A stretch of DNA of 63,301 nt, filler included, from Reclinomonas americana ATCC 50394 (lineage: Eukaryota): assembly GCA_048213135.1 (NCBI GenBank). It is 6 parts of 2 records of this genome, joined end to end, with 100 filler letters (N's around TTAATTAATTAA, not from the genome) between each part and the next. Parts side by side here need not be neighbours in the genome. Positions count along the whole stretch, not along the records: positions 59,630 to 63,301 come from PS015018.1; 5 more parts are not named here. One strand, given 5' to 3'. The position numbers and the translations under genes are program-made. The notes under the pieces were generated by a model. The model was not told the origin of the DNA, searched no databases, and worked only from the letters and a program-made list of their open reading frames with translations. Of the stretch, positions 6,718 to 63,301 are shown piece after piece. Positions within the stretch are counted from its first letter, which is position 1. Each line of letters starts with the position of its first letter.

Positions 6718-6817
6718 NNNNNNNNNNNNNNNNNNNNNNNNNNNNNNNNNNNNNNNNNNNNTTAATTAATTAANNNNNNNNNNNNNNNNNNNNNNNNNNN
6801 NNNNNNNNNNNNNNNNN
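6718..6817. other. Artificial scaffold linker (N-TTAATTAATTAA-N)
   Basis: Six-frame stop linker embedded in Ns. The same linker occurs at about 14770-14869, 23953-24052, 40895-40994 and 59530-59629. Confidence 0.97.
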
Positions 6818-14689: not shown

Positions 14690-14869
14690 TTTCTCTCTCT
14701 CAGTGCGTTTCCGAAGAATGAATGAAAACGGCGCGAGTACGGTACAAACAAATCAATCCAAGTGAGTGTNNNNNNNNNNNNNNNNNNNNNNNNNNNNNNN
14801 NNNNNNNNNNNNNTTAATTAATTAANNNNNNNNNNNNNNNNNNNNNNNNNNNNNNNNNNNNNNNNNNNN

Positions 14870-16096: not shown

Positions 16097-19000
16097 TTAG
16101 CAGCAGTCGCTGGCCTGCTGTTGTGCAGGCGCACCACCACCGGCCGAGCCCGTCCGTGGTGGGTTCACCGCCAGCTTGGAGCGCCGCTTGTTGGCATTGG
16201 CACCCTGCTGCATCATGGTCAGCGAGCCGACCGCCGTAATCGTGCGCACCACCTCGACATGCTGGTGCTCTTCGCTGCTGCTGCTGCAGGCCGCCATGGG
16301 CACCGTCGACGCGGGTCTCTTGAAGCACAGCTGTCGCACCGGCCGCAGGTTCTCCGCATGCGTGCACTGGCGGTGACGAGAGCCAATGTGGTGATGATTG
16401 GCGGGAGCTGTAGCCGTGGCCGTAGTGGTAGCAGTCGTCATGGCGGAACCGGCCGCCGGACGAGACTTGCTGCGGGCGGGGCTGGCGTGTCGCGAGTTCG
16501 AGCGCGACACGGGAGTACGCGATCCGCCGCTGCGCGATCCGACAGCGCTCGACGGCCGTCCGCGCGTCGGGGTCGTGTTGGTCGAGTGCGAGTCGCGAGT
16601 CTTGTGACTGGAGGTCGACCGCTTGCCGGCCACGACCAGTCGCTTGCCGGCCACCGTGGCGCCGTCGGCAGTGGTGGCGGTGGTGTTCGTGGAGGCGGTG
16701 GCGGCGGCAGCGGCGGCGGGGGTGACGTTGGTGGTGCTGTTGTTGGCGGCCTTGGCGTGCTTCTTGGTGTTGGTGACGGTCTTGCCCAGCAGCACGGTCG
16801 GCGTGCAGTGAATGTCGACCTCGGTGCGTCGCAAGTCGAGCGGCGGCACGACTATCGACAGGTCCTTGAGGGCCCAGATAAAGTCGCCCTGCTCGCCTTC
16901 CTCTCGATCGCACTGGCGCTCCTCGAAGCTGCCGGTGCTGGAGGCGTCAAAGTCCAGATCCGCATCCGCCAGTCCTGGCGTCGGGGGCGCGCGCGAGTGG
17001 GCACTCAGCGCCTCGCTCCACTTGTCCATCAGCTGCTCGGCGTGCGACTGAATGTGCGACAGGAACCAGCCCGGCAGTGTCGACTCCTTTGGTGATGCAC
17101 CGCCCGAGGCAGCAGCCTTGTCAGTGGAGGCGGCGGCCTCCATCGCCGTCGCCATGACCGACGAACGCTCAATGCCGACCAGGTAGGCCTCCGCCGCATC
17201 GGCGCACATGACCTTGGTGACGGCCACCCGACGCGCCTCCGTCAGCATCTCCATGCGCTGTTGCAGAGCGGCGAGCTCCTCGTCAATGTCGCGGACGGCC
17301 GAGGTGGCCAGCTCGCGCTCGTGTCGCACACGATGGTGTGCACTGGCCACTTGCGTCAGCGGCGTGCCCGTCGACGCCTTCTTGGCCAGCAGCGCCTCAC
17401 GTGAAAACTGCTGATCCAGCGCAGCCCACTCGCGCCCGCGATAACCCTCAGCTCCGCGCGCCCACTCGGCAACCGTGCTCACACGGACGGCGGTGTCGTC
17501 GCCGTCACCGTGCTCGGTTTCGCCATTGATGGAGCGAATCGTGCGTGAGAACGCCAGACAGATCTGCAAGCGAGTCGCGCAAGTGAGCAAGGGAACACGC
17601 GTACGCGGGCGATCTGTTTCTTTTGTCTTTTTTCGTACCTCATCGAGCTGCGGCCGCGCCAGCTGCGCAATGCGAGTCGAAATGACCTTGCTCGGCAGCG
17701 CGTCGAGCTTCTCCTCAAACTCCACCAGCACTGCACCGAGGCTGCGCGCAATGGCCGACACGTTCGAGTCGTAGTCGCTGGCCGCGGCCAACGCCAGAGC
17801 CATTTGCGCATTGCGTGACACCAGACGCAGAGCGCCAGTCGAGCGTGCGCTGCGTGGCGTCTCAGTTGTCGAAGCGACAGGTGCCGTCGTGTTGTCGTTG
17901 ATCAGCGACGTGAGCAGCTGCTGGACANNNNNNNNNNNNNNNNNNNNCCGGTGATCAGAGGCGCGCAAGCAGCACGCTCACTCTCCGACTCTGCAGGCAG
18001 AGGAACGGGAAGAAAAGGTGAGTGATCGGCTGCAGAGGTGAGAGGAAAGAGTGGGTAAGGAAGGGCAACGCACCGGTGGCAGTCGTGCCAAAGTCGCCAC
18101 TAAAGATGGCATTCGGAATAATGGCGTCGCTGGTCATCATCACGTCAACATGGTACTGGTGCGCTGGCAGCAGGGACTGGATGGTGAAGGTGCCGGTGGT
18201 CGGCGCCACATCGGAGCGCTCAAACACCACAACGTCGGTGTGCGACGCTGACGAGACGCGCACAAGAAGGCGCGAGTCCGCTTGCGGGGTGATGGACGGT
18301 CGAGTGTACGGCAGGGCCCAGGTCTCCAGCTGCAAGGTTTGAAAAAAAACAAGAGTGTAAGCATCGAGGTTTGCAGCGGGCGGCAGAATGGGTGGGTGTG
18401 TGGAAGGTAGACATCCATCNNNNNNNNNNNNNNNNNNNNNNNNNNNNNNNNNNNNNNNNNNNNNNNNNNNNNNNNNNNNNNNNNNNNNNNNNNNNNNNNN
18501 NNNNNNNNNNNNNNNNNNNNNNNNNNNNNNNNNNNNNNNNNNNNNNNNNNNNNNNNNNNNNNNNNNNNNNNNNNNNNNNNNNNNNNNNNNNNNNNNNNNN
18601 NNNNNNNNNNNNNNNNNNNNNNNNNNNNNNNNNNNNNNNNNNNNNNNNNNNNNNNNNNNNNNNNNNNGACAAATAAAAAACGATACGAAAACTGTGGCAC
18701 ATGACACAGCGTGCCACCATTCTTCCGTGCGACCTGCGAATGGGGGGATGCATGACGTGAAGCAAACACTCCGCGCGCCACAAGTGGCGGGGATGCTGCC
18801 GAAAACAAAACAAACAAGCGACACGTGTTGTGTTGGTGCCACCAACCTTGGACAGCAGCTGGAAAACAGAAGGATCCCACTCCAGCACCGCCGTGAATGC
18901 GTCGATGCGCGCGAGCGAAACGCGGCACGCGGGAATGCCAGCGCTCTGGAATGCGGTCCACGGACCGTGAGCCCACGACAAGTGACCGCCGGCGGCCACC

Positions 19001-22340: not shown

Positions 22341-24251
22341 GTGTAGGGTGTGTGTGTGTAGGGTGTAGGGTGTAGGTGTAGGTGTGGGTGTAGGGTGTGT
22401 GTGCAAGTGTCCAATCTACGAAGTCTCCCACAAAACCACTAAAACACTGTGCTGGCCCACCTCATTTTGGTATGGTCAAGTCCGACCCTCGACAGCATCA
22501 ATTGCACCTCGTCGATGGTCAAACCAACGGGCAATGGAGTTGTGTGCTGTGTGGCTGGCGGGGTGGCGACGTGCACCTGTGGCAGCGGCTGTGTGCGGAG
22601 ATCGATCGCATACATGACAACAGGAGAGATACCAGTTGTTGTTCGACTTTTTGGTCGCCCTGTGCGTTGTAGGTGTTGATCATGGAAAGAGAGAGAATGC
22701 TGCAGCTGAACCTCGCTTGAGTGAAGGTGGCCATGCAAAAGCAGAGTGGCAAAGGCAATCAACATCGGACTGCTCATTTTCGTACCGTGAGGTGGCCATA
22801 GTACATTCACGAAGCTGCAGCTGTATCGCGCGAGGGCGATGCAAGTTTTATTAGCGAACCCAACGTTGGCACCTTGGTCCGTCTCATCTTGCTCGAGCTG
22901 TGAAAGTACTCTCGCGAAGATCGCTTCGTGGTTTTGTAAGATGCTGCGGTATTTCGGAAAACGAATTATTTTCAATTGCGACTTGCTTGCAGGCAGCACG
23001 TCCTTGTTTGTGGACCACAGTCGGAGTGGGGGTGAGGAAGCATCTCCCTACCGGCTCACCTGGCCACGGAAGCTTGTTTACGGCCTCACGATCGCCGAAG
23101 TCTGCAAAGCTGTCGGCAATATTGCGCCTGAGACTTGCAATAGGTCGCCAGTGCGAATTCCACATGTGAGGCGGCCTCACACTAGTCTTTAGCTTCGACC
23201 TGCTGCCATGGCCAGCGTGGCACTCTCAGCTCTGCGGATGGGATATGCCGGCGGAAATGTACGCATTTGGAAAACCGCAAGTGCTTGAGTTGCACTCAGC
23301 ATCCCTCCTGGCACCCTCAGTGCCCCACGCAACACATCTCTCTAACCAGGGGCGCGCGCCACTCTGCAGTCGTGTTTTCGGACCTCGACATTGAAATCAC
23401 TCGACACTGACCCACAAATGAATATTCGTCGCGGACTTTCGGCTCTCCCTCTCCCTCCATGTCGCCTCGCGCCACCGCTGTCACGCTTCTCGCGTCACTA
23501 CTCTTGCTGGTGCTGTGCGTCGGCTCGGCCCAAGCAGCCAGCAAAGAAGCATGGTCAGTCTAACTTTCTTCTCCTGACACTNNNNNNNNNNNNNNNNNNN
23601 NNNNNNNNNNNNNNNNNNNNNNNNNNNNNNNNNNNNNNNNNNNNNNNNNNNNNNNNNNNNNNNNNNNNCCCTGACGAATGCAAATGCACGCAAATGAATG
23701 AATGAATCTCCGCGTCTCCGCACATGCACACACACTCGCACTCACCCGGAAAGTGCCACCGCAGTACTGTGAGAGGTCGTTGCAGTTGCCAGAGGGACCC
23801 CCGAAACCTGTGTGTACGCGATGAGAGTCATGATGCACTGTCTTCTTCTCATTCTCCGCATCACATTGTGCACGCACGATCCGTCAACAGCTGGTAGATG
23901 ACACGCGACTTCCTGCATGTGGGCGAGAACACGGCGAGTGTGAGAGAGTGTGNNNNNNNNNNNNNNNNNNNNNNNNNNNNNNNNNNNNNNNNNNNNTTAA
24001 TTAATTAANNNNNNNNNNNNNNNNNNNNNNNNNNNNNNNNNNNNNNNNNNNNCTCTCTCTCTCTCTCTCTCTCTGTCACACACCTTGTTGCTCACTGGAC
24101 TTGTGTCTTTTCCGCGGCGGCGACCCACTCGCTCGCCTCACCTCTCCCTCCTCCTCTGCCTCTCCATCCTCCCGCTCCACCTCTGCATGCCCTCTCTTCT
24201 CTTCGCGCATGGTATGTGTGTGTGTGCGTGTGACAAAAAACAAGACAGTCG

Positions 24252-24654: not shown

Positions 24655-26583
24655 TCACTCTCTTGTGTCGTTGCTCATCCCGCTCTCTCACACACACACA
24701 CGCGCGCGCAGAGCAAATCCTCAAGTTTCTCGGCGACGAACTCATTGGCGATCGGCATGCGTTCGAGTATGGCATCTCCAATGGAGCCACGTGCACCATG
24801 GCGCGTAAGCAGCTGCTCTCTGTGCTGCCGACGTCGCCGACCACTGCTGCAGTCGCGCAGCGACAGCAGCTGTATCAGTCGCAGCAGCCGTACTTGTCGT
24901 CGTCGTCGGTGTATATGTCGTCGCCGGGGAACAGTCGACCGTCGTCGCCGATGTCGAACGCATCGCGCATGTCGGCCTCGTCGGTGTCGCTCGCCGATGG
25001 CCTGCTGAGCCGTTGCGCTCTATTGTTGCTCGTGTTTATCAATCGCCGCTGCCCGCTCACTGTGTGTGGAATTCCACAGGTTCTGGTGGTTCGTCGCGAG
25101 TGGCGTACAGCTCGCCGCGGAAACTGCGGCCACCGTCAACGACTCGCTCCTCGTCGCGTCTCATTTCGTCGGGAGGAGGAGGAGGTGGTGGTGGATCGGC
25201 GCCGTCGTCACCGCAGCGGCAAGCGCCACAGTCGCGACGACAGGCGGCTACACCACAGCCGAGTTCTAGTTTTGCATCGTCGGCGCCCGTGTTCAGCACG
25301 CCCACTCCTGCTACGGTCACGTTCTCCGCGCCGACTGCACTGGAGCAGAGTCTAGCGCGTGTGCAGCAGCAACGGCAGCAGCAGCGAATGGCGGCGTCAC
25401 CACCCCCAGCTCCTGTCGATCACGCTCCCGCTGTTGTTTCACAGGTGAACACACGAAGGCCGTCACCGCCACCGCTGCCGCCGCCACCACCATCGCTATC
25501 AATGATGAATGCGTACGATCGGCACAGCGGACTGCATTCGCCGCCGGTGGCTCTCGAGTCGATTCGGCCACACATGACGGTCGAGCCGCCGACTGACGAC
25601 AGCGTCACCGAGCACGAGACAAGCCTGACTCACTCCGCTATACCGCCACCTATTGGTTGCGTCGCAGCACGAGAGAATGTGCTTCCGCTCTCGTTTGGCT
25701 GAAAGAAAGTGTGTTGTTCAGTGAGTGTCGATCTGACTCGCACCTCGTCAACTACACCCACTCGCGGTGGAAAATCCGCCCCGTCCGCCACGAGACAGCG
25801 TGCATCGTCCCCACCGCAGCAGCAGGCATCGTCCGCCAATGGCACACGTGCGCGAAATGGAACCACAGCCGCCACCGACGCGAAGAAGACGAGTCTCTCA
25901 CCCCCGCGTCGAGTTGCGTCCGCTCACCGATGTATGTGTGTCTCTCTCGCACACTGATCACTCACTCACGCAACGCGACCGCGACAGGCTGCACCTGCAG
26001 GACCGTCGGCGACACCGGTGGAATCGGCACAGCGTTCCAATCAAGGTGCCTACCGCAACGCCGTCACCAATCTCATGGAGCTCGGCAAGGATCTGGACGG
26101 TCGTCAGCTTGCCTTGTTGCGTGCACAGTTTTTTTGTTGACAGTTGGTATCTTTCTCTCTCACGCACACGCTCTCACTCTCAGCGACGAGAATTACACAT
26201 GCGTAATTGCCATCGAGTCACGCGACAGCGAATCACCAGAGCCGACCAACGTGCTGGTGACGTACGACCCGGAGACCTTCCGGTTGCATGTCTACAGCAC
26301 GCTCCTCACGTCGCTGCCGACGGATCCCGCTCATCGACTGGCGCTGTTTGAGCGTGTTCTCAGCGGTTCCATCCTCGGTCGCGACATGTGTGGCGGCGGT
26401 GCCGGCATCTCGTCCAAGAACAACCTCCTCCTGATGCACACCACTGTCGACATGCGGACCAGTAACCCGTCGGCACTGCGTGTGTTGATGCCTGACTTCT
26501 TGCGGTCGCTGCACGACTGGAGGGCTATCGTGCAAGGCGTGATGGAGACCGGGCACGGTGGTGCGACAGCGGCTGCTGTTTGA
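24252..26583 (+). CDS. Ubiquitin-like domain + S/P-rich linker + CesT/YbjN (type III chaperone-like) domain protein, multi-exon; start uncertain
   Basis: Spliced LRVSKIKRYLHRFSGVPPEEQILKFLG...YGISNGATCTM (Ubl-like). C-terminal LAFDENYTCVIAI...LHVYSTLL...LFERVLSGSILG...GGAGIS...FLRSLHDWR resembles CesT-family chaperones. Confidence 0.65.
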
Positions 26584-29141: not shown

Positions 29142-29188
<47 letters not shown>

Positions 29189-29517
29189 CAGACGNNNNNN
29201 NNNNNNNNNNNNNNNNNNNNNNNNNNNNNNNNNNNNNNNNNNNNNNNNNNNNNNNNNNNNNNNNNNNNNNNNNNNNNNNNNNNNNNNNNNNNNNNNNNNN
29301 NNNNNNNNNNNNNNNNNNNNNNNNNNNNNNNNNNNNNNNNNNNNNNNNNNNNNNNNNNNNNNNNNNNNNNNNNNNNNNNNNNNNNNNNNNNNNNNNNNNN
29401 NNNNNNNNNNNNNNNNNNNNNNNNNNNNNNNNNNNNNNNNNNNNNNNNNNNNNNNNNNNNNNNNNNNNNNNNNNNNNNNNNNNNNNNNNNNNNNNNNNNN
29501 NNNNNNNNNNNNNNNNN

Positions 29518-30487
29518 ATGCTCTGTCGCCGTCACCCCCGATGGTCAACACGTTGTGACTGGCAGTCAAGACAAGACGGTGCGAATGTGGTCGGCGACGA
29601 CTGGTGAAGAGTTGCTGCGATTAGTGGGACACTTTTTTGGAGTATGGTCTGTCGCCATCACTCCTGATGGCCAGCACATCGTGAGTGGCGGTGATGACGA
29701 GACAGTGCGGTTGTGGTCAGTCACGAGTGGAGAGGAGGTAAGACGGCTTAAGGGACACATTGGTGCGGTGCACTCGATTGCCGTCTCTGCTGACAGCCAG
29801 CACATTATCAGCGGAAGTGAGGACAAGACAGTGCGAGTGTGGTCGCTGACGAGTGGCGACGAGGTACGACGGCTGGCGAGGCATACGGGAGAGGTGTACT
29901 CTGTCGTCGTCACTCCCGACGGGCAGCACGTCGTAAGCGGTAGTCAAGACAAGACCGTCCGAGTGTGGTGTCTGGCGCGTGTGGAGGAAGAAGTGCAACG
30001 GCTGGAGGGACACACTGGAGGGGTAAACTCGGTTGCCGTTAGTCCAGATGGTCACCACGTTGTGAGTGGGAGCGCTGACAAGACCGTGCGTGTGTGGTCG
30101 CTGGTGACTGGGAGAGAATTGCGACGGCTGGAGGGACACACCTGTCCAGTGCGGTCTGCCGTCGTCACTTCCGATGGACAGCACATTATCAGTGGCAGTG
30201 ACGACAAGACAGTGCGCATGTGGTCGCTGGCGACCGGCGGGGAGGTGCAAAGTGTCGGTGCCGGCTTTGTTTATGTGCAAGCGGCATGTGCGGACGACAG
30301 TCAATGCTTAGATGGACACACTGGTCTGGTGACCTCAGTCGCGGTCTCTCCAGACGGTTCGCACATCGTAAGTGGCAGCGCGGACATGACGGTGCGCATC
30401 TGGTCGTACCACCACCACCGTTCCGCTCTCTTGGACCGTGTTCTCGGTTCTTTCCTTCCTGACTTTGCCGATTCTCTCGGAGAGTAG
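29518..30487 (+). CDS. C-terminal WD40 array (7 highly similar repeats), 5' truncated
   Basis: Repeating GHxxxVxSVAVTPDGQHIVSGSxDKTVRVWSL units, no obvious intron. Same repeat type as the truncated end of the NACHT gene at 34732. Confidence 0.9.
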
Positions 30488-33290: not shown

Positions 33291-34594
33291 ATGGAGAGCG
33301 AGCTGTTCCGCGACCTGGATCACGAGATTGTGGAGGCTGGTGCTGTGGGCAACCTTGCTCCGAAGACTGTGTCAGACTACCGCTACATTGTGCAACAGTT
33401 TACAGCGTTCTTGCGAGAGCATGCGTGCTGTATCGGTGAGACGAACTGCTCATGCACACACTACGCCGCACCGTGCTGACGCACGCTCCTCTGCAGAGTC
33501 CATCCCAGATCGCAACCCTGCATTGCATCAGGCTGCAGTGGACATGTGTTGGGACGACGCACACATCGACCGATGCGTGGCTGTGTACGTCAAGTACCGC
33601 GCCCGGAACCACATCAAGTACTACTCGATCCACAAGGACTTGCAGGCCATCAACTGGCACCGGAAGCAGCTCGGCTACACCACGGTACGCATAACAACTT
33701 GTTTGCGCGCGAAGCAACTGCCACGAGTTCCATTTTACCGACCACTCCTGCAATTTGTTTCTCGCTGGTTTTCGCGCGCTCAGGTTGTCGGCTACTCGTC
33801 GCGCTTCTCTCCTCAGACGGGTGTGGCGTTGCTGTCGGTCAGGCGCGACAGGGATGGCAGCGGTGTGGCGCAGACGCACAAGGAGCCAGCAGATCCAGTC
33901 ATCGTGTTGACGGCAGTTGCGCTGTGTGATCGCAATGCCGCGTTTGCGTTCCGGCGCATGCTGGAAGTGCAGGCGACGCTGCAGCACCTCTCGCCGGGGG
34001 CCCGCGACAAGCGCGCAGAGAAGGAGCGCGCGCGCCAGACGCACTTGCGCTCGTTCCATCGTTACCTGAGGTGCGTGAGATGCAGTACTGCATGTTCGTC
34101 AGTTTGCCTGTTTCTCACCCGCTCCCTCTCTCTCTCTCCTCCCCCCTCTCCCCTCTCCCTCCTCTTTCCACGCTGGCGCGCAGCGAGGGCACGGTCCTCC
34201 TGCTGCAGTACGCAGGCGGGCGGCGCAACAGCGAGGTGGTGAACCTGCGCTTGTGTGACATCGCCTTCTACCCGCTGGGGAATCGTCAGATTACCGCCGC
34301 CCACCTGCTGCGTCGCCGCCTGTTCTTCACGGAGGATGACGAGCTTGTGCCGGTGGAGCCGCACGACGAGGAGGCGCCGGGTTGGCAGCTGCTGCATCGC
34401 GTGACTGTCACTGTGCCGCGCTCGAAGACCGATCAGGAGGGTGTCGGGCACATGATCGACATTGTGCGCATGGAGCCGGCGCGCTGGTGCCCCGTGGCTC
34501 GTCTGCTGGTGTACCTCTCGTACGCCAAGCCGCACTTCCTCGAGAGCCCTCAGGAGCACAGGTCGGAGTACCTGTTTCAAGTGCAGGAGGGGCA
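33291..34594 (+). CDS. Tyrosine recombinase, exons 1-4 (core-binding domain and first half of catalytic domain)
   Basis: LAPKTVSDYRYIVQQFTAF, LQAINWHRKQLG, LLLQYAGGRRNSEVVNLRLCDI, VTVPRSKTDQEGVG, WCPVARLLVYL, EYLFQ; three GT-AG introns restore the frame. Confidence 0.9.
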
Positions 34595-34596
34595 GT

Positions 34597-34633
<37 letters not shown>

Positions 34634-34731
34634 TGGGGTGGGGGGGTGGGGGGTGCGCGCGTCTCTCTCTCTCCTCCCTCCCTCCTCCTCTCGTACTTGT
34701 TTGTTCGTCGTNNNNNNNNNNNNNNNNNNNN

Positions 34732-37700
34732 AAACAATGTGCTGACCATCGGGAGTGGCAGCGACAGACATTACGCAGTCAGTGTGCCCCACCATCGGCT
34801 TCCTCGGCCACTTCATCCCCGTCACATCCGCTCCCCTGAAATCCGCCTCCCTTGCATACGCCATGCACATATTCACCCCTCGCAGATCTGCCCCCCTCCA
34901 CACTGTCCTGTGCATCACCGCATCCCTCAAATCAGCCCCCCTCACCCGCACACCCGACAGATCTCGCCCGCTGAACGACACCTGAGCCACACATAACACC
35001 GTGGCTGCATTCGCTGCTGCCGTCACCACTCGCTCCTCCTCATCCACCTCCCGTGACAACTCAATCACCTCCCACAGTCTCGTTTGCAATCGAGGTGACC
35101 GTCGCACCACCTCGGCAATCTGCTCAACTAGCGGCGGTCGATCGTTCAGCAGCCGCACTGCCAGCACATGCTGCTGCACATCTTGCATTGTCAATCGCCT
35201 CTCCTCATCCCACGTCTCCCATGCAAATACATGTCGTGCCACACAGTGCTCCAGTAAAGACAGATGCACGAAACCCCACTGATCCGTCCCATACCGTCGC
35301 ACAATCGGACAGCACACTCGCACATGCTGGTTCTTGCGGCCGAGGAACTTGTCAAATGGTCCCTTTTCAACTCGACGGAAGCTGATCGGGGCCCCACCAA
35401 ACTCGGCAATGTCCTCTTCGAATGCTCGCTCTTCAGACACCACGCGCACCACGTTCCTCTCATGCATCAGCCGTGCCAGTCCCTCACAGAACGCCAGACA
35501 CGTCTCCTCACTCGGCACACGCTCTGCACCAAGACGCGTCTGTCTCTCTTGCTCCCTCACAATCCACTGTCGAATGAATCGGTCAAACACATCACATCGA
35601 GTCGGTCGCTGCACACCACTCGCCACCAACTGCGGCAACACACGGGCCACTACCGATAACATATATGGATTCGATACCAATGCATCCAGTCCATGCACAC
35701 TCTTCAGTGCACGAATGTACTCCTCGGCAGTCGACCATCGCACATCACCGATATCGTCATCATCACCACTCACTCTCACCAGTCTCACGAAATACTCCTC
35801 AATCTGCTCCTTGTTGAACGGCGCAATGTGTCGCTCCATCAGTTGCTGCATGCATAACTGTCCGCGTGCGTCCACGGGAGCAAAACATCGTCGATACTGT
35901 ACCGCTCCACCCAATGCCGTCAGTGCGTAATCCTCACGGCAGGTGATAATCACCTTTACGTCGCGACACACAGATGCATCCAGCCGGTTCTTGACAAACA
36001 GATTCACACCACGATACAACTCATCGTACCCGTCCAGTAACAACAGCAGTGGTTCCTCCTTCAACCGTCGCGCATCCGATTCACTGAATCCCAACTCGGG
36101 TGAGAGTCGCTCCAATGCCTCCTCGAGCAATCTCTCGTCGGCATTGCGCAGAGCACCAAGAGGCACACGCACAGGCACTCGTCGCAGTCGACTCTCTCCT
36201 GCCTCCTGCCACTGTCGCCATGCTCGCTCGGCCAACACCGACATGGTGGTGGTCTTGCCGGCACCGCTGTTGCCAAACAGAACCAGCACACGGTGGGTGG
36301 TGTTGGTGTCAGAGAGGAAAGCATCAGCTTCCGTTAATAGGTCCAGCAGCTTCTCCCTCGGCGCGACGTCACGCTCACGTGAGCACAGCAATGGCACATA
36401 CATCTGCATGTCCTTGCGCACACTCTCGTCGTGCTCATAGAACGAGAGCTCTCGTGCAGCCAATCGATGCAGGTGTTCCTCGAAAGTGCTGATATGCACA
36501 TTAGCTGGGGGAAAACGACGAACAGAACTCAGCAGGCATGCCCATGAAATAGTCAACGATTCGCTAACAGTTGCACAAACCATGCCGCACTTGCTTCAAG
36601 TGATCTCTCGCTGTGGCCTTGACTCGTTCGTCAACATGGAGGAGGTCGCAGAGCATACCAAGCTGTCCGTTGCTTCCGTCGGTTCCCAGCCAAAGGTTGA
36701 CCTCTGGTGCCAAATTGTGCGTGCCAGATCGATGCACGACCTCATTGCGGAAGCCACGAAGGCGATCAATAACCCCACGCTGCAAGCGTCACGGATAGTA
36801 TACACGTGTCAGTGGAGCTGCATTCTTTCCACTTGTCATGATGGCGGGGATGGAAACGCACTTCGATAGTATCGCTCATGAGGAGTTCGTGCCTATCGCT
36901 GTCGTCGACGTCGACTCCACCATGGAGGAGAAGGGAGCACACCAGCATGAAGCTGAAGGCTGAGCAGCTGGGAGCCGATGTGCGTCCGGAGGCCTCAAAC
37001 TCCTCCATCCACTTCTGCAGCGCCAACTTGTCCGCAGCGTCAACAACCATGACCCGACCAGTGCGCGACCGCAGCCTAGCGACACAATACACACAGGGAA
37101 TAACATATTAGTTGGTGACAATTTTCACACCTCTCTTTGTCAAGCTACAAAACGCAACCGACGCGGCGGATCTGGCTTGTACCACTCGGTGACTCTGACA
37201 TCGAATGCACGACAGAAGTCGGGAAGGAGTCGCTGCAGTCGGATTCGCAGCAACTCGGTGACAATGTCCAACGCTGTCGACAATCGTCCATAGTTGATGA
37301 CGCCAACCTGGAACGTGAAACTGGCAGAGTCGCGCCCATATGCACCGTGTGAAAACCGTGCGCTGCTAGTTACCGCATGAGCGGTGTCAGCAGTGGACTC
37401 GGAGGTGTCTCCAGTCCTCGCCTGCTGCTCGGCGATGCTGTTGCGGACAGAGTGGATTGTCGGTTGAGAAGAAAGTATGCGCACACGAGCTTGTGGAAGG
37501 AACATTGCGCAACGTTGATTCGCCCACTTTCACCACAAACGTGGTGCCCGGGTTGAAACGGTGCAGGGTGGCACTTGTTGAGAAGGCCTTGGGCTTCAGC
37601 ACCTCCACAATGTGCAACGACTGATTCCCAGTCGTCTCACGCAACGCCTCGGTGGCGGCCGCGATAAACTGCGCTGCAGTGGACGAACGCTGTAGTCCGC

Positions 37701-40894: not shown

Positions 40895-40994
40895 NNNNNN
40901 NNNNNNNNNNNNNNNNNNNNNNNNNNNNNNNNNNNNNNTTAATTAATTAANNNNNNNNNNNNNNNNNNNNNNNNNNNNNNNNNNNNNNNNNNNN

Positions 40995-49052: not shown

Positions 49053-52000
49053 TTACGCCTGGAAGATGGCACACACTGCTGTCTGCGGCAACATGGGAGC
49101 CACGAAGTTGAGTCTCCCACTGGCGTCGGCCACCACCACCTGGTTGGTGGCGTCGACGCGGTATCGCGCATTCGGCACCGCACTGGTCAGCACGTAGCGT
49201 GCCTGTGCGTAACCCTGCACGCCCGTGGTGATGCAGATGCGATCTTTGCGATAATGGTACACATGCAGAGTGCCCATGTCGTAGCTCCACGAATCGCTGT
49301 CGAAGAGCGGTGCCACGGTGACGCCACCAAAACCGAGCCGAATGCCGTACTTGGCCTCGCGGAGGAGCATCGCATAGGCCTGCAAGCAAGCACGAATCGT
49401 CAACTACATCTGCAAAGCATCATTGCCATTGACAGTGTGCGAACCTCCGGATACTCGATAAAGAACTGTACACCCGTCCACGTGTGAGTCACGACGATTG
49501 CAACACAAGACGCACACATGCACATACCGGATTGTGCGCCGGCTTGTTGTCGCACGTGTAGCGTTCATACAGCCACCTGTGAAATGCAAATATATGTGGT
49601 GAGACATTTGTCGATCACACATTGACGGCCGAGGAAACGCAACGTCTGCTGCACGATGGTGCTGCTGAAGCGATCGAGAATGCGCGTCTGCAGTGTATTC
49701 ATGTCGCCCATGACTCGTCGCGCGATTCCCTCCTACACATAGCCCGTGAGCACCACAGTTCCGGGGGGAAGCGACACGCAGAAAAATGACACGCACCGCC
49801 CAGGCTATGCGGGCCATCGTCACCGCGCTGTCACCAATGTTGTCGAGGTAGCAGTCTTTCGGACCGTAGAACTTCTCCGAGACGTAGGTCGGCCACGCGG
49901 GACCGCAGGTGCTGTTGTCGATGCGGTGCAAAATGGCAGTGGCACGATCTGGAGTGGCCACACCGATGCCGACGGCCAGCAGATTGCTGTCGTAGTCGAC
50001 AAAGTCGCGAGTCGATCCGTCCTTGTTGAGCTGCGTAATGTAATGGTCTCCGGCCCACAGATGCTGATTCATGGAGGTGGCAATAAGAGTGGCATTGGCG
50101 CGCAACGATGCCGCGCGTGCCGTGTTGCCGAGATAATCGTGAGCCTCGGCCAGTTCGTGCGCCAGACGAACGGCAAAGGCGTTCGTGTCGGAGGTGAACT
50201 GCTCGCGGCGGAAGGTATCGATCCACAGCGGTCCCGGAGCACTGATCTGCACACAGCAGACACATAGGTTTCTGCATCGGGCCACCGCCAAGCACCACCA
50301 CGACAACAGCTCCAGCCTCACCAGTCCCAACGTCTTGTCGAGGTTATTCATGACAAAGTCGGTGGCACGGTCAATCAGGTTGATACGCAAGCGCAGCCAC
50401 GACACGTCGCCGGTCTCGCGCACATACAACAGTGCAGCTGAAGCCCAAAACATATTCGGTCCGGTCTGCGTCGCGCCCGAGATGGCCACATAGACGGGCT
50501 CCTTGTCGTGGAAGTGCTGAGAGGCGAGGACACGACCAACATGCATCGCGATGAGCCCCCTCACACCACAGCTGCAATCGGCAAAGACGCAACGTGCGGA
50601 AGCTGACCGGTGGGCAGGATACGAGCGATACTGGTCTCGAGCACCTGTTGCGACTGGTCAGCCAGGTACGGGTCGTCGGCATACAGCAGTGCTGAGATGG
50701 TGAAGAACGAGTCCGGGTCCTGCGCGCCACCGAGAGACATTGTAAATCACACGAGCAGGGAGCAAACGGATGAAAGATCTAGAGTAGTGTGCACTCAACA
50801 AAGAAGTTGTACAGTCCGCCGTACGCGTGGTTCGGTGTGGCGATGGTGGGCGACACACGTGCCGGCGGCAGCACGTATGAGACGAGCGCTCCGACCGGCG
50901 ACGCGTAGATGCCGGTGTAGAGCGCCTGCATTTCGTCGCTTAGCGCGCCACTCTGCTGCGGGTCACTCGCGTTTGGCAGGCGCGAAGCCGGCAGCGGGCG
51001 ATCCGAGGCGTAATACTTGAACGACACACTCCACGAGTCGCCCACATGAATGGTGGAGTTCGAGGAGCCGTTCTGCAGCGAGCAGAGCAGTGAGAGCACT
51101 AACGGGGCAAGGCAGTAGGTTTCTTCCTCGTGCCAACTGACCCAGCCAGTGGACCAGTCGTCGAACCCCTCTCCGTAGTTGCCTAGCAACACCAGCTGCA
51201 CGCCGCTGCCGAACCACTTGGTGGTCGGCGGCTGTGATTCGGGATGCCGATCGAATGAGTGCGGCACGCGCACACACACACATAAAAGAGGCGACGCACA
51301 CAAGACCTTGTTCAGCAGAACGGTGGTCGAATGCCCGCTGGGCTCCACAATCTCCGGGCACCCGCTCTGCTGCACGTTGGAGTCGATCGAGTACACACGC
51401 TGCAGAGCATCGCGCGACGCAAAGAACGGTGCCGGACTCGACATGCTCTGCACCGGACCGCGATCAAAGAGGCCGTACACCGACGGATTGGGCGAGTAGA
51501 CCGACACGTACACCGCCACCGTCTCCTGCGCCACCAGCGCACTGGCGCTGACCTTGAGCTCAAAGAACCGCTGCCCGGCACCCAGAGACAGAACCCACTC
51601 GGAAGTGATGGTCGGCTGCGTGGCGTCGTCTACCACGCCGGTAAAGTGCACTCTGCATGCATGCAGCGTGGATGAGCACCTGCGAGGCAACGAGAACGAC
51701 AGCAACAAACAACAACAACTGACCGTCCCAGTGTGTCGGTGTTGGACTCGATCGTGTACTTCAGGGAGGGCGATGCCGCACGAGACGAGGCACGCGTCTG
51801 GTAGTCCAGCCTGTGAACAGCAGTGAATGTGAATGCTCGGAAAAACACAGCTGACTGACTGTTTGGCTGACCATGATTTTGCGACAATGCGCTCGAGCGA
51901 GACACCCACACGACTGAGGCCGAGTGGATCCAATGTGGGCGAGCTCAGTGTCAGAGACGGGCGCGCATCAAAGTGGCCCGTGCCATTCACATCGGCGACG

Positions 52001-52176
52001 ACATTGCAAATGCCGGGAGTCTGCAGGCAAAAGGCCACATGCACAAAGCCGTTCTCCAGCACCACTTGGTTGTTCTGTGTGAAGACGCGCACAGGCGGGA
52101 GTGCAGTGGTGTGTGAGGCCAGTGCAGTGCCCAGCGCGGACGAGAGGAGAAGGAGGAGGAGGAGGAGGAGACGCAT
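49053..52176 (-). CDS. Secreted six-hairpin glycosidase-like ((alpha/alpha)6) protein, multi-exon
   Basis: Signal peptide MRLLLLLLLLLSSALGTALA; YVRETGDVSWL, WIDTFRRE, ARAASLRANATLIATSMNQHLW, DFVDYDSNLLAV, WLYERY-type motifs. Confidence 0.65.
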
Positions 52177-52530
52177 TTCCTCCGGTAGGAGAAGACAAAT
52201 GAATGGTGGACAAGGGACAACGAAGACGTCGATTGTTGCTTTCCCGAGGCGTTGCGGCAGCCAGTTCCCGTGTATTCTCTCTCTTGTGTGCATCAAGGAT
52301 GGATTCACTTGAAGTCTTGTCTCGTCTCATGTACAAAAGCAAAAAACAGCAAACAACGTGGGGGGTGGAGAAGGGGAGGGTTACCGGTGGCGGTGGTGGT
52401 GGGTGACAGCGGTGCACGGCACACAGATACAGACGGCACACGTGCACACGCTCGCAAAACGGGCATCTAACGCAAACGCAAACAACAACAACTAGCTAAC
52501 AAGGGTGGAGAAGGCAGCCGAAACGCGCAC

Positions 52531-55500
52531 TCATGGTCTCGGCAGCATGTGGGGCGGTCGAATCGCAGCCCAGGTCTCCGGGCAGTCTGTGTCATGGGGT
52601 AATGATATAGCAGGTGAGTTCAAATCGCCCCTGTTGTTCACGTCTCCAAACCAAGACGCAACGCTTCGACGCCAGCTCCGCCGCCATACTGGCAGGTCGA
52701 TGCACGTGGTCGCGCGTGGAGTAGCGGGTGAGCACCTCAGCTAGCACCGCCAAGCCATCGCAGCTGACCAGAGATTTGCGGTTCGACTCGTTGCCTGCGA
52801 GACACCACCGTATTGAGCAAGCCGTTTTGTTTCTTTTCGGCATACCCATCAGGCGGACACACACACACACATACCATCCATGGCATAGTAGGCAGCCCAC
52901 ATGGCCTCGCATATCAGTGGCGCCTGATCGTAGTGCTTCCTCACAATGTCAACCAGCGCCTGTACGAATAAAAACAAGTCAGCAGCTGCCATTTTCCAAG
53001 GACAAGGCACGAGTGTGCACGCAACAGTCATGCCGCCAGCATCACCAAAGAGTGCCTGGTTTGCGGGATCTGTCACACGGACGGACAAGCTTCTGGGTGA
53101 GCCAGGAGGAGAGGAGAGTGCGAATGGCAATACAGTGCACTAGCTGACGCACCATCATGCATTGCATTCCAAGCCGCACGGCACGCCTGCGCCGCCACGT
53201 GAACACTGTCGGGGTGGTTTCGCATAACATTGACAAGAGCACCCATGCCACCAGCGTCACGCAAGAGCGCGCGCGCGGTAGGTGAATCTGCAAGTGCGCG
53301 GAGATAGATATACGAGTGAGAGAGGGAGTGCATATTGAGACACGTGAAAAAACGACAGCACCTCCAGTGACGTTGGCGATCGCGGCACAGGCGAAGCGCA
53401 TGACTTCAGCACTGCCAATCTGGTAGTGAAGCACAAGGACCAGCATGCGCAGTCCCCGCGATTCACACATGCGTGTTCCGTTGGCCAGGTTGCCTGTTTA
53501 GGGTGCGAATTAGAAAATGGTGACATGACCACCCCTCCCAAAAATGGAATCACAACAGTGCGTGAGACGCAACAGTCGAGAGCAGCCGATGCTGCCAAAC
53601 ACGCATGCTGCATGGTCAACACGTTGCCGGTGTGCTGCTGGAATACGGGAACGAGGGCTGCGACGCCGCCCAACTGTACGAGGAAAAAATCGGGTATGTG
53701 AGTCAACCAGCACAAAAACGCACGGAAGAAACAGACACCAATCACACACACACACAAACAAACCTCGCCAAACATTGCTTGGTTCTCGGGGCACGCCTGA
53801 GAAACAAAGCAGGACAAGGCACGTACATCAGTGAGTGAATCGGCATCCAAAAGTGGAGAGAAAGTGAGCAAGCGCAACAGCCATGGCACAGAACGCCGCA
53901 TCGCAGGCATATCGCATCACTTCGTGGTTCAGGTAGTGCTCGTGGAGCACATCGACGAGTGCCCGCAGGCCATCGCTCTGTCGGAACTCCACTTGATTTC
54001 GCGGGAATTCTGCACAGCACTGGATCAGCAACAACACCGAAAACACGTGCAGCGTGCACCAGATGCGGAGCCGTACCGTGCATGGCAGTGGCCACCGACC
54101 AGCAGACGTAGCGTTCCACTGTCGCATCTCGCAAGTGCCGTGCCTGCAGAGTCCGATGGGCAAAAAAGGCAAGTGCGGGTGAGAGACAGATCCAAAACGG
54201 GGGACGCAAAAGAAGGAAAAGCAGCACTCGACTCACCATTGCGCGAACAAGTGTGGGAATACCGTCGGCCTTGGAGAGGCGCTCACGGTTGTCCTTGGAA
54301 GCGTACATGGCATACGTGAGTACCCATGCAGCCTCGCGTGCGACGGCGGCCGAGTCGGGAAGCCGCTCCATGACCTCGATGAGCGTTTTGATGCCACCGA
54401 GTTCACCCCACTGCCTCTGATTGTCCGCATTGCCTGCAGTGATGCGTGTAAGCACACACATGTCGGTGTCCACCACTCTGCTGACATTATAAAATGTACC
54501 TGCGAGGGCATTCAGCGTGGCTCGGCAGGCCTCGAACATTGTGTCCTATGTACACGCAACAGACACGGGCGAGATGAGCGTGCAAGCCACTTTCTCAACG
54601 ACGAGATACACCAGATCGAACACACACACTCACCGCGTCGCCAATATGCTTCTTCATCACCCGCTGCAATTGGTCAAGGCCGTTGACATTGACAAAACGC
54701 AGCCGATTCGGCGTATCCGTGTCAATGAGAGCGTTCGCCACCGCCATGCAGGCATAGAACATGGCCTTTGTCTCGCAGTTGCAATGGCGGGAGATGAATG
54801 CTGTCAGCGAGGGCTGCACATACACAAGCGGTCGCATGAGACGACACAATCATCCACAGCAGTGACGGTGGCAACACCATACCATGCCGTCCACGTCAGC
54901 AAACCGCCGACGATTCTCTGTCGATAAGTACATGAGAACACAGTGTGACACATTTCACGCACACGGTTTTCGTGAGACTCACCGTCGATACGCATGGCAT
55001 TGGCCAGGCAAGCAGCTGCCAGACCACACACTTCCGCGTCCGACGCATACCGCTCGAGAACTCCCATGCACAACTCCACGCCCCGCTGACCACCGAACTG
55101 GCGACATGAAGTCGTATCTGTGAAACGAGCAGGCGGTGAACAAACACAAGCACACACAGTCGACCACATTCACAACACACGCAAACGGCACCCACCCAAG
55201 CGCAAGATCTCCTCTGCTACCTCCAGAGCTGCACCGACAACTTCTGCTGGCTCCGCCGGTTGCGCCTCCAACACGTGCAGCACCTGACCGCCGACACGGT
55301 GTGAGCACGGACATGTACACACCAACACACACCAAAACACAGAAAAAGAAACGTGAGAACGCACCTGTTCAAAAGCAGGACGCTGTCGCCGTGGGAGTGC
55401 ACGCAGGGCCGCCACCCGAAGTGCCGTCGGTACTGGAGTCTGTCTCAAAGGCACCATGCTCGTCGCTGTGCTCGAAGTCGCACTGGCCGCCTCCATGATG

Positions 55501-59529: not shown

Positions 59530-59629
59530 NNNNNNNNNNNNNNNNNNNNNNNNNNNNNNNNNNNNNNNNNNNNTTAATTAATTAANNNNNNNNNNNNNNN
59601 NNNNNNNNNNNNNNNNNNNNNNNNNNNNN

Positions 59630-62025
59630 CACACACAGCTGAGCGATCGAGAGGACGCACGAACAATGTCTTGACAAATACATGCACACGCACCCGCGGC
59701 ATATCCATGATCGACACACAGAGCCGTGCACGCACTGACGAAGGGGTCGACATTGACGAGGTCGGTGACCAGCGCGCGACTGTGCGCCCATTCGGCCAGC
59801 GGCGCCCGTCGTCTGGTCGACGCGATTGGCGCAAACGGCTGCGTGTAGTACGACGGCAGCGGTGGCACGAGTCGGTGCATGTCGGCCGGATGCGCATCGA
59901 GGTGCTGCGAGGTGGAATGAAAAAAGTGAGACGCTGCGGGCACGACAACAACAACAACAAGGAGGCCGCAGTACGCACTCTCATGTACGAGGTGAAAAAG
60001 TCAGACGAATGCAGACTCTCCTCGGCCACCAGCGTGTCCACCAGCGTGATCGCCGCCAACGCCTCCTGCAGGTTCTCCTGCACGAATTCCACGTTGCCCT
60101 CCGACACTTGGAGAAGCCAGTTTTCCACTGGGGCGAAGGTGAAGGAGAAAATGAGGAGGAGGAGGAGGAGGAGGAGAGGCAGGAGGAGGCGGAGGAGGCG
60201 GAGGACGAGGAAGAGGAAGAGGAAGGAGGAGGAGGAGGAGGAGGAAGGAGGAGGAGGAGGAGGAGGAGGAGGAGGANNNNNNNNNNNNNNNNNNNNNNNN
60301 NNNNNNNNNNNNNNNNNNNNNNNNNNNNNNNNNNNNNNNNNNNNNNNNNNNNNNNNNNNNNNNNNNNNNNNNNNNNNNNNNNNNNNNNNNNNNNNNNNNN
60401 NNNNNNNNNNNNNNNNNNNNNNNNNNNNNNNNNNNNNNNNNNNNNNNNNNNNNNNNNNNNNNNNNNNNNNNNNNNNNNNNNNNNNNNNNNNNNNNNNNNN
60501 NNNNNNNNNNNNNNNNNNNNNNNNNNNNNNNNNNNNNNNNNNNNNNNNNNNNNNNNNNNNNNNNNNNNNNNNNNNNNNNNNNNNNNNNNNNNNNNNNNNN
60601 NNNNNNNNNNNNNNNNNNNNNNNNNNNNNNNNNNNNNNNNNNNNNNNNNNNNNNNNNNNNNNNNNNNNNNNNNNNNNNNNNNNNNNNNNNNNNNNNNNNN
60701 NNNNNNNNNNNNNNNNNNNNNNNNNNNNNNNNNNNNNNNNNNNNNNNNNNNNNNNNNNNNNNNNNNNNNNNNNNNNNNNNNNNNNNNNNNNNNNNNNNNN
60801 NNNNNNNNNNNNNNNNNNNNNNNNNNNNNNNNNNNNNNNNNNNNNNNNNNNNNNNNNNNNNNNNNNNNNNNNNNNNNNNNNNNNNNNNNNNNNNNNNNNN
60901 NNNNNNNNNNNNNNNNNNNNNNNNNNNNNNNNNNNNNNNNNNNNNNNNNNNNNNNNNNNNNNNNNNNNNNNNNNNNNNNNNNNNNNNNNNNNNNNNNNNN
61001 NNNNNNNNNNNNNNNNNNNNNNNNNNNNNNNNNNNNNNNNNNNNNNNNNNNNNNNNNNNNNNNNNNNNNNNNNNNNNNNNNNNNNNNNNNNNNNNNNNNN
61101 NNNNNNNNNNNNNNNNNNNNNNNNNNNNNNNNNNNNNNNNNNNNNNNNNNNNNNNNNNNNNNNNNNNNNNNNNNNNNNNNNNNNNNNNNNNNNNNNNNNN
61201 GGGCAGGAGGAGGCGGAGGAGGAGGAGGACGAGGAAGAGGAAGAGGAGGAGGAAAGGAGGAGAAGGAGGAAAAGGAGGAGGAGGAGGAGGAGGAAAAGGA
61301 GGAGGAGGAGGAAAAGGAGGAGGAGGAGGAGAAAGAGAAGGACGAGACCGCGGGGATGGAGAAGGGAAAGATGAAGAGAGTTTGCAAAGTTCCAAGTCTT
61401 CAGTCTTCCATCCCCTCCCGTCCATTCCCCTCCCCGGACCTTGCTCGCGAGTGGATCGCTCCGTCGACATTGCCACACTGTACATCTGTCCACGCATCGA
61501 CAGCGTGTGCTGCGTCGCCTGACGCGGTGCACGATGCGACAGCGTTCGCGGGTGAGTTACGTGATACGCCTGATCGGCCACCGAGATGGTGAGATGATGC
61601 TCGGCGAGCAGATTCAGTGAGTAGGCCCATATCTCATCGCGATAGTGCTGCAGATGCGGGTATGGATGAAGCGCCTCCTCCACTGATCACACGAGACAAG
61701 TCAAAAAAATCAATCAATCACACATGCATGCACCTGTTTCTCTTTCTTCGTTTTTCTTTGTCTCTCACTCACCTGCCTCCATCAGTGTGACGTGATGATT
61801 GTGGAACACCACATAGATGGGAGTGTCGGGCTCTCCTGCAATGTCGCTCTTCACGCTGACAAATGTCGACTGCACATTGGCGAGCGTCCATGGTCGCACG
61901 AGTGCGTCTGCGTGTTGTTGTGCAGTGGCGCACTGTGTGACACTGAGGAGTAGGAGCAGCAGGGGGAGGAGGAGAAAGAGAGAGGAGCGCGCGAAGGAGT
62001 GCATGAACGAAAACGAACCGAACAT
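59630..62025 (-). CDS. Putative secreted protein of unknown function, fragmented
   Basis: Signal-peptide-like SSLFLLLPLLLLLLSVTQCATA, then short exons with GT-AG boundaries; large gap. Confidence 0.45.
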
Positions 62026-62366
62026 ACGACTGTCCCGCTGTCTCTTTCTCTCTTCCTCTGGTGAAGTCTGCAGTGCCGGAGTGCGGCAGCATACAGTGTG
62101 ACACATGCAGCTGCTTTGTGAACGCGCTGCAGGCACAGTTCAGGAGAGAGAGACAGAGATCGCGAAGTCGACGTCGACGTTGATTCATTGCATGTGCTCC
62201 TGCCTGATCCAGTGTACCCGCTGTGGAGTGTTGCAACTGTGCTACGCTGCTGCCGAGCGTGGCGTGCAGGGAGCCATGTGCATGCACGCATTCTGTTGTT
62301 CGGGTAAAAATAGTTGCGAAAACATTGCATGCTTGCACCACTCCCCCCACCCCTCACAAAGAAATC

Positions 62367-62375
62367 AAAAAGAAA
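62367..62375 (-). terminator. Putative Pol III terminator (TTTCTTTTT)
   Basis: T-run immediately 3' of the trailer that closes the permuted tRNA hairpin. Confidence 0.6.
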
Positions 62376-62415
62376 GTTGAGCACCGTGCTCTAGCAGAGC
62401 GGCCGTCAGAATATA

Positions 62416-62500
62416 CCGAATGCTACCACTACACTACAGCGCCTTCCGTGAGGGGAGGGCGCTGGGAGGGAATCGAACCCCCGCCTCGGGCACCCAAAGC
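62416..62500 (-). tRNA. Circularly permuted tRNA-Pro(UGG)-like gene: 3' half 62500-62457, 13-nt spacer, 5' half 62443-62416
   Basis: The re-ordered halves give a 72-nt cloverleaf with acceptor stem GGCGCUG/CAGCGCC + C73, D stem GUGU/GCAU, anticodon stem CGG|GC/GCCCG, loop UU-UGG-GU and T loop UUCGAUU. Confidence 0.8.
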
Positions 62501-63301
62501 AAAGAACCGACATGCCTTGGTCTAGCGCGCGGTGCTCGATACACAAGAGTGCACATCTGAAGGCCATGGTTGCAGGACGCACGCAAGCACAGCGCTGCAG
62601 CCGATGGCTGCAGCTTGACCGCGCGCGAGAACGCACTTGCACGCGTACGTGCATGCAACGCGATCGCGTGGGATCGTACGTAGTCCAGTCCACTATGTAC
62701 GCGCACTGGTCCATGTCCAGCCAGTGCTGGCATACGAGACTCGCGCACCACACAACAACAAAAACGATCCCAGCGCGACTTCGACTTCGAATTCACAGCT
62801 GCACATGTACTACGCTTCACCACTTGCACCGTTACGTAGTTCACACCCCGACTACCAGGCAGACCTTACCCGGATCCGCACCACCGGTACCATGCCAGCC
62901 TTCGTTCTCCCTCATCATGACCGGCACGCGATTCTCTCGTCCCGCACTTCCACCTCTTTTCTCGGGAATGCGCACTCACGTTGCTGCATCAGCGACCCCT
63001 CCTCGGGGTCGTCTGACTGTGCTTCTTGCGGCCTTGCTCGTCTGTGCACTGGCAGTGGCCTCGCTGGTCGATGCATGTGGAATGCTCACGCACACTGTTG
63101 CGTCTCCGTCAGTCAGTCTCTTTCACTCACTCTTTGTCACTCACTCTCTCTCTCTCTCACAGGAAATCACAGTGCGCGCGCAGCAGTCGGCGTTCTTCTC
63201 CGAGTATCCCGCGTACAATGCTGTGTGTGTGCTGTGTGTGTGTGCATTGATTATTGATGGTCGTCTAACAATCACACGCACTGTCACACTCTCTTTCTCC
63301 G

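Follow-up and report, generated by a model that had tools for sequence, protein, structure and literature searches.

A candidate circularly permuted tRNA-Pro(UGG) gene split within the anticodon stem and lacking a bulge-helix-bulge motif

Introduction

Can a tRNA whose two halves are encoded in reverse order be rejoined at a place where the usual splicing signal is missing? Permuted tRNA genes are rare, and all cases covered in the review literature, as far as its available text goes, are tied to the motif known as bulge-helix-bulge (BHB) that is read by the tRNA-splicing endonuclease. The available part of Soma 2014 (PMC3978253) tabulates 34 such genes, found in six algae and one archaeon; their junctions are at 15/16, 20/21, 37/38, 50/51 and 59/60 (none at 29/30, and none in a tRNA-Pro), and their intervening sequences measure 1-74 nt. 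The accessible portion of a 2026 review names permuted tRNAs only in certain algae (unicellular species, nucleomorphs) and archaea. A 2025 preprint, in the part of it at hand, adds Auxenochlorella to the hosts, and the word 'permuted' was not found in those of its text supplements that were available. Among the titles listed for 'permuted tRNA' (literature from 2015 on) and for combinations with Discoba terms, none dealt with nuclear permuted tRNAs of Discoba.

The locus described here lies on the minus strand of the piece 59630-63301 of the window, that is, of the whole 63,301-nt stretch of DNA that was analysed. An initial annotation had described it as a permuted tRNA-like unit between a leader and a trailer and had offered a Y-RNA-like tRNA mimic as an alternative. 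We read it, with a probability of about 0.55, as a circularly permuted nuclear tRNA-Pro(UGG) gene with a new type of junction. The absence of a BHB is what makes the locus interesting: with a junction that interrupts the anticodon stem and no BHB there, cutting cannot go by the known rule, and any use of the locus would call for a mode of rejoining the two halves that has yet to be described. Gene order, cloverleaf content and the stem formed by leader and trailer are seen in the sequence; a function of the locus is inferred.

Results and discussion

Order of the gene parts

The window is made up of six pieces joined by five identical linkers, each consisting of 44 N, a 12-base six-frame stop sequence and another 44 N (positions 6718-6817, 14770-14869, 23953-24052, 40895-40994 and 59530-59629). 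It holds a further 14 N runs of 20-962 bases and 7352 N in total, and thus represents a gap-rich draft. In the window as it stands, ARAGORN called no tRNA and Rfam gave no match at gathering scores, and no tRNA could be read at the locus on the plus strand. On the minus strand, the following features were found (the stem formed by leader and trailer is called the clamp):

62537-62379, minus strand: whole permuted unit, 159 nt, in the order leader / nt 30-73 / spacer / nt 1-29 / trailer
62501..62537, minus strand: leader, 37 nt, 5' arm of the clamp stem; its final 6 nt unpaired
62457..62500, minus strand: 3' half of tRNA-Pro, 44 nt, corresponding to nt 30-73
62494..62496, minus strand: anticodon UGG (proline), followed by G37
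62469..62479, minus strand: perfect B box / T loop, the sole exact B-box consensus match in the 63-kb window
62465..62470, minus strand: 3' strand of the T stem, 6 nt against the usual 5, with one surplus base
62444..62456, minus strand: intervening spacer, 13 nt, which loops the acceptor stem shut and has no T run
62416..62443, minus strand: 5' half of tRNA-Pro, 28 nt, corresponding to nt 1-29 with position 17 absent
62426..62436, minus strand: A box (D-arm consensus), downstream of the B box
62379..62415, minus strand: trailer, 37 nt, 3' arm of the clamp stem; its initial 6 nt not paired to the leader
62367..62371, minus strand: T5 run, candidate RNA polymerase III terminator, 8 nt past the trailer

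The coordinates and strand that had been assigned to the unit, with a leader at 62537-62501 and a trailer at 62415-62379, each of 37 nt and on the minus strand, proved correct. The arrangement is that of a permuted gene: on one strand the 3' half comes first and the 5' half follows after a short spacer, which at 13 nt falls within the range of known intervening sequences. In both respects the locus resembles the permuted tRNAs of Cyanidioschyzon merolae, Ostreococcus/Micromonas, the Bigelowiella nucleomorph and Thermofilum pendens, as described in the available part of Soma 2014 (PMC3978253). The 3' half contains anticodon-stem nt 30-31, the anticodon loop, stem nt 39-43, a 4-nt variable loop and the T arm, as well as the acceptor 3' strand and the discriminator C; CCA is not encoded. 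The 5' half contains the acceptor 5' strand, U8 and A9, the D arm, U26 and anticodon-stem nt 27-29.

As in a permuted gene, a candidate T-stretch terminator (the T5 run) is located downstream of the unit and none lies between the halves: direct reading showed no run of four or more T anywhere in the 159 nt. The internal promoter boxes bear on the permuted-gene reading in two ways. A perfect B box and an A box are present, which counts for it, and the B box precedes the A box, the wrong order for TFIIIC, which counts against it. No clear TATA-like element was seen by direct reading within 50 nt upstream, whereas the permuted genes of C. merolae have an upstream TATA-like promoter; the promoter scan was of bacterial-type promoters only.

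Within 61210-63301, Rfam gave no other RNA gene at E <=1, save for a tmRNA-like match to the locus itself. Upstream of the leader, at a distance of 223 nt, the minus strand has a second T5 run (62760-62764), and about 150 nt beyond it comes a C-box-like AUGAUGA (62912-62918, also minus strand); no Rfam family matched in this part. In addition, a 13-nt inverted repeat (62521-62533 / 62618-62630, 92% complementary) could pair the outer leader with sequence about 85 nt upstream, replacing the trailer.

Content of the rejoined halves

After the halves had been swapped by script, ARAGORN called a tRNA-Pro(tgg). Together with the gene order, this call bears out the initial description of the locus as a permuted tRNA-like unit with its junction at 29/30, a position that is fixed because only that joint yields a 5-bp anticodon stem. 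The rejoined cloverleaf carries the conserved bases of a tRNA, with the caveat of one surplus base in the T stem. The acceptor stem is paired 7/7, the anticodon stem 5/5 (three pairs from the 5' half, nt 27-29, and two from the 3' half, nt 30-31) and the D stem 4/4, two of these pairs being G.U; the T stem has five pairs. The anticodon loop is 7 nt long, with U33, UGG and G37, and the variable loop 4 nt. U8, A14, G18 and G19 are all in place, as is the T-loop consensus, and the discriminator is C.

The surplus base was placed differently by different programs. Three covariance models put an inserted U at 62467, ARAGORN shifted the acceptor register and accepted a U-C mismatch, and RNAfold left one C unpaired between the T and acceptor stems. 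It is possible that this base is a homopolymer error (the run is C-rich and the draft rich in gaps), a real bulge or a sign of early decay. Near-B-box matches at 52780 and 58267 lacked T-arm pairing and were set aside as chance matches.

An alternative is that the locus is a permuted pseudogene: a rearranged copy of tRNA-Pro that does not function or is decaying, and from which no tRNA is processed. We regard this as the main rival explanation, although a rather unlikely one. It is favoured by the extra base of the T stem, by the missing TATA-like element and BHB, by the single copy in the window, and by the fact that no relatives were detected in the metagenome contigs or prokaryote genomes searched: the exact 22-nt T-arm/acceptor pattern had 0 matches in the metagenome contigs and the permuted acceptor/D-arm pattern 0 matches in the prokaryote genomes. 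On the other hand, every stem and every conserved base that was checked is intact, bar that one surplus base, and the flanking sequences provide further points against decay.

The clamp stem

Complementary leader and trailer sequences beside the junction belong to the picture of a permuted gene, and they are present at the locus. The RNAduplex prediction showed that leader and trailer form a stem of 8 + 2 + 4 + 3 + 6 = 23 bp at -37.0 kcal/mol, a value reached by 0/1000 mononucleotide shuffles (mean -18.8, sd 3.7) and by 8/1989 N-free control pairs taken from the window with the same 37/85/37 geometry. The four helices listed in the initial annotation for the two 37-nt arms were all recovered, together with a 2-bp GC/GC step and one U.G pair, and the clamp stem was found once in the window. 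The 159-nt unit folded at -75.5 kcal/mol (z = -4.0), with none of 200 shuffles equally good, and the outer stem was present in both the MFE and the centroid structures.

The last six bases of the leader and the first six of the trailer are unpaired with each other, and the six unpaired nucleotides reported earlier for each side of the junction were thus seen both in the fold of the unit and in RNAduplex. In the MFE fold, the first six bases of the trailer pair with part of the D-arm instead. The structure that combines cloverleaf and clamp has -55.9 kcal/mol vs -75.5 kcal/mol for the MFE, so that an alternative fold is about 20 kcal/mol more stable.

Neither arm of the clamp resembles the tRNA halves to a significant degree, the alignment score being matched by 717/2000 shuffles for the leader and by 1896/2000 for the trailer. 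Such shuffle-level scores rule out that leader and trailer are themselves decayed tRNA halves, which argues against the pseudogene; they also mean that an origin by tandem duplication, a proposal made for permuted tRNA genes, is neither supported nor excluded. Moreover, decay does not explain why a 23-bp clamp is set symmetrically, 6 nt from both sides of the junction, nor why a T5 run stands directly behind it.

The split tRNAs of Nanoarchaeum equitans, as described in the available part of Fujishima and Kanai 2014 (PMC4033280), offer a parallel to the clamp: their complementary leaders anneal beside the junction and unite the halves before cutting and ligation, as the arms of the clamp would. 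Unlike the locus, they are archaeal, come from separate genes joined in trans and have a relaxed BHB, whereas the locus would give a single transcript and has no BHB.

The junction at 29/30

In the available part of Soma 2014 (PMC3978253), a BHB is defined by a central helix (H) of 4 bp, by two bulges of 3 nt each and by flanking helices (h and h') that have 2 bp or more, and the relaxed forms are hBH, HBh' and 'no H'. All pairs of cut sites in a 211-nt stretch were scored against this definition. The exhaustive register scan showed no strict or relaxed BHB at 29/30, where H has 1/4 pairs and h and h' have 0 each, so that the leader/trailer junction lacks a BHB motif of any class. It had been stated that no canonical BHB could be drawn at 29/30, and the scan agrees. 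The accompanying statement that known permuted tRNAs use BHB-type motifs is in line with the same source, which lists 'no H' as well. Eight strict BHB-like combinations were found elsewhere in the 211-nt stretch, and all of them would give nonsense products.

Both cuts would be flush with the exon helices (27-29:41-43 and 30-31:39-40) and 6 nt from the clamp. The two sides thus mirror each other, whereas those of a BHB are related by two-fold rotation. Towards the leader, the succession of clamp, 6 nt and cut is the spacing found when a BHB has its H unpaired; towards the trailer, 6 nt separate cut and clamp, vs the 1 nt expected for a BHB. By manual count, a yeast-type ruler starting from nt 27 (a rule taken from the available part of Soma 2014, PMC3978253) would cut within the clamp stem.

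A classical BHB might nevertheless form in an alternative fold, or after other processing or editing, and allow the ordinary splicing endonuclease to act. Processing takes place at a BHB-type motif in each of the 34 tabulated permuted tRNAs, with some of these motifs very relaxed ('no H'), and the leader-side cut 6 nt past the clamp is where a BHB with an unpaired central helix would have it. The near-empty register at 29/30, the nonsense products of the eight strict combinations and the trailer-side distance, however, make a hidden BHB very improbable. Compared with the algal and archaeal permuted tRNAs, then, the locus stands apart in its 29/30 junction within the anticodon stem, in fitting none of hBHBh', hBH, HBh' or 'no H', in its long clamp (23 bp) with symmetric 6-nt tails, and in a host that looks like a discobid and not like an alga.

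Comparison with YrlA, Y RNA and tmRNA

The initial annotation proposed a different explanation, in which an unspliced RNA of about 160-170 nt would act as a tRNA mimic of the Y-RNA/YrlA kind; its terminal stem would then bind a Ro60-type protein. At the locus the 5' and 3' ends pair and a U-run comes after them, as in polymerase III small RNAs, which would fit such a mimic. The module order of the locus is also the same as in YrlA (RF02553), where a terminal stem is followed by the T arm, the loop-closed acceptor stem and the D arm. This architecture had been given correctly, as it agrees with the available part of the YrlA structure preprint, whose authors liken YrlA to circularly permuted pre-tRNAs.

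The Rfam comparison showed that the locus scores 16.2 bits with YrlA against a gathering score of 69, and that the alignment covers model positions 23-88 of 114, i.e. the tRNA-like core alone, leaving the Ro-binding stem of YrlA (positions 1-22 and 89-114) unaligned. Y_RNA was not among the seven Rfam matches listed at E <=10. With YrlA far under its gathering score and Y_RNA without a match, the comparison did not uphold the Y-RNA/YrlA reading. The likeness that had been noted between the inner stem and the Ro60 helix is a loose and putative one.

In bacteria, a Ro60/TROVE gene is usually found near YrlA. Among the ORFs of the window no Ro60 gene was seen: in their 56 translations (some being overlapping versions of one frame) neither a TROVE domain nor a splicing-endonuclease domain was detected. 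The locus differs from YrlA in its eukaryotic context and, after joining of the halves, in its complete anticodon arm. What a proline anticodon arm needs beyond nt 27-29 of the other half is supplied, exactly and in register, by the 11 bases that lie between clamp and nt 41; this is the weightiest point against a mimic, which has no need of such an arm. Taken with the Rfam scores, we consider the mimic improbable.

The best Rfam likeness of the locus was to permuted (two-piece) tmRNA genes, with 18-21 bits (cyano_tmRNA 21 bits, E 8e-4). This likeness reflects only the order of T arm, closed acceptor stem and D arm: in two-piece tmRNA (RF01851, RF04321), as at the locus, the T arm and the acceptor 3' strand come before the acceptor 5' strand. 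Unlike these RNAs, the locus lies far below the family thresholds (70 and 47), has no tag reading frame or pseudoknots and possesses real D and anticodon arms. Over all tmRNA models, it scored 9-21 bits vs thresholds of 47-70, with the tRNA-like part alone covered. Furthermore, tmRNA occurs in bacteria and organelles.

The tmRNA likeness is of interest for another alternative, in which the product would be a two-piece RNA: RNase P and RNase Z would open the acceptor loop, the ends at 29/30 would stay unjoined and the clamp, which is long enough for this, would hold the pieces together. A 23-bp arm on the anticodon stem, however, should prevent decoding, and the differences from tmRNA also weigh against it; we think it highly unlikely. 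The two-piece RNA and the unspliced mimic are both best described as possible but minor.

A degenerate B-box-to-D-arm pattern matched 117 metagenome loci, 20 of which were compared with Rfam. Most of the 20 were ordinary tRNA arrays and seven were YrlA-like, and they were rejected as relatives of the locus. The YrlA-like ones (L004 298-351, L054 252-386, L008 275-385, L011, L005, L036 and L059) share an architecture of outer stem, hairpin with a 7-nt loop, T arm, loop-closed acceptor stem, D arm and outer stem, and often adjoin tRNA genes. They scored 25-35 bits against the threshold of 69, two of them across the full model. At scores this far below the threshold, the elements are RNAs not yet catalogued, YrlA-like or permuted-tRNA-like in kind and bacterial or phage in origin.

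Proposed processing and its significance

In the permuted-gene reading that we prefer, the locus would be transcribed as a single polymerase III transcript of about 170 nt ending at the T5 run. The clamp would align G29 and G30 on the 39-43 strand, and the two 6-nt single-stranded tails would be cut flush with the helix and removed together with the clamp. Sealing of the nick would give a circular intermediate, the loop-closed acceptor stem of which could be opened by RNase P and RNase Z before CCA is added. A splicing-type endonuclease of relaxed specificity, together with a tRNA ligase, might do the cutting and joining; within the permuted-gene reading, the odds between such an enzyme and another nuclease followed by trimming would be roughly even. 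We lean towards the relaxed splicing endonuclease because C. merolae, T. pendens and the Guillardia nucleomorph tolerate junctions of the 'no H' kind and introns that have no defined BHB (sources available in part, including Soma 2014, PMC3978253).

Several findings argue against function. These are the surplus base, the missing upstream TATA-like element, the alternative fold that is about 20 kcal/mol more stable, and the fact that no BHB class fits, although every reviewed permuted tRNA has a BHB-type motif. A more far-reaching claim would be that a non-algal eukaryote, a discobid, makes tRNA-Pro(UGG) from a gene split in the anticodon stem and joined independently of a BHB, by way of a long clamp, two 6-nt tails cut flush and a nick sealed on the anticodon stem as template. 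We put this forward as a tentative proposal, with the odds standing against it.

If this proposal is true, the locus would add a sixth type of junction and, for disrupted tRNA genes, a new signal for processing, and it would be the first example of a permuted tRNA from beyond the algae, nucleomorphs and archaea. A working locus would imply that cells can rejoin tRNA halves by a rule other than the BHB, and 'missing' tRNA genes that are invisible to tRNAscan-SE and ARAGORN could then be looked for more widely. If the host is a discobid, the phenomenon would move beyond photosynthetic lineages, weakening the idea of an algal or archaeal relic. Even a dead locus would still be a record of how permuted genes arise.

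Other features of the window

Domain searches of the 56 ORF translations showed B12D/NDUFA4, WD40, Arm, NACHT-pentapeptide and DEAD-box domains; the first four of these imply a eukaryotic context for the locus. The ORF at 25930-26580 (plus strand) has a CesT-like domain (Pfam PF05932), and an exhaustive HMMER search gave 170 relatives. Among the best 20 of these 170, 11 have a name and ten name an organism, all ten being Discoba: four diplonemid species (five entries), two euglenid species (three entries), Trypanosoma conorhini and the jakobid Andalucia. On the strength of this one protein family, the host is probably a discobid.

Two long ORFs have no Pfam domain, one at 16100-17803 (minus strand; 568 aa, GC3 0.79) and one at 50782-52293 (minus strand; 504 aa, GC3 0.72). 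The word-index search gave no match for the ORF at 16100-17803, whose Ala/Ser/Thr-rich tail may have swamped the candidates; two ORFs of the window had no homologues by word-index search, and the protein atlas search gave no match. The window is also rich in dinucleotide repeats. An NACHT NTPase with pentapeptide repeats is encoded at 34580-36583 (minus strand) and had one weak match in the homologue search, and a separate, gap-interrupted array of seven very regular WD40 repeats was found at 29144-30484 (plus strand). By their domains, the NACHT and WD40 ORFs are predicted STAND-type proteins in a protist draft.
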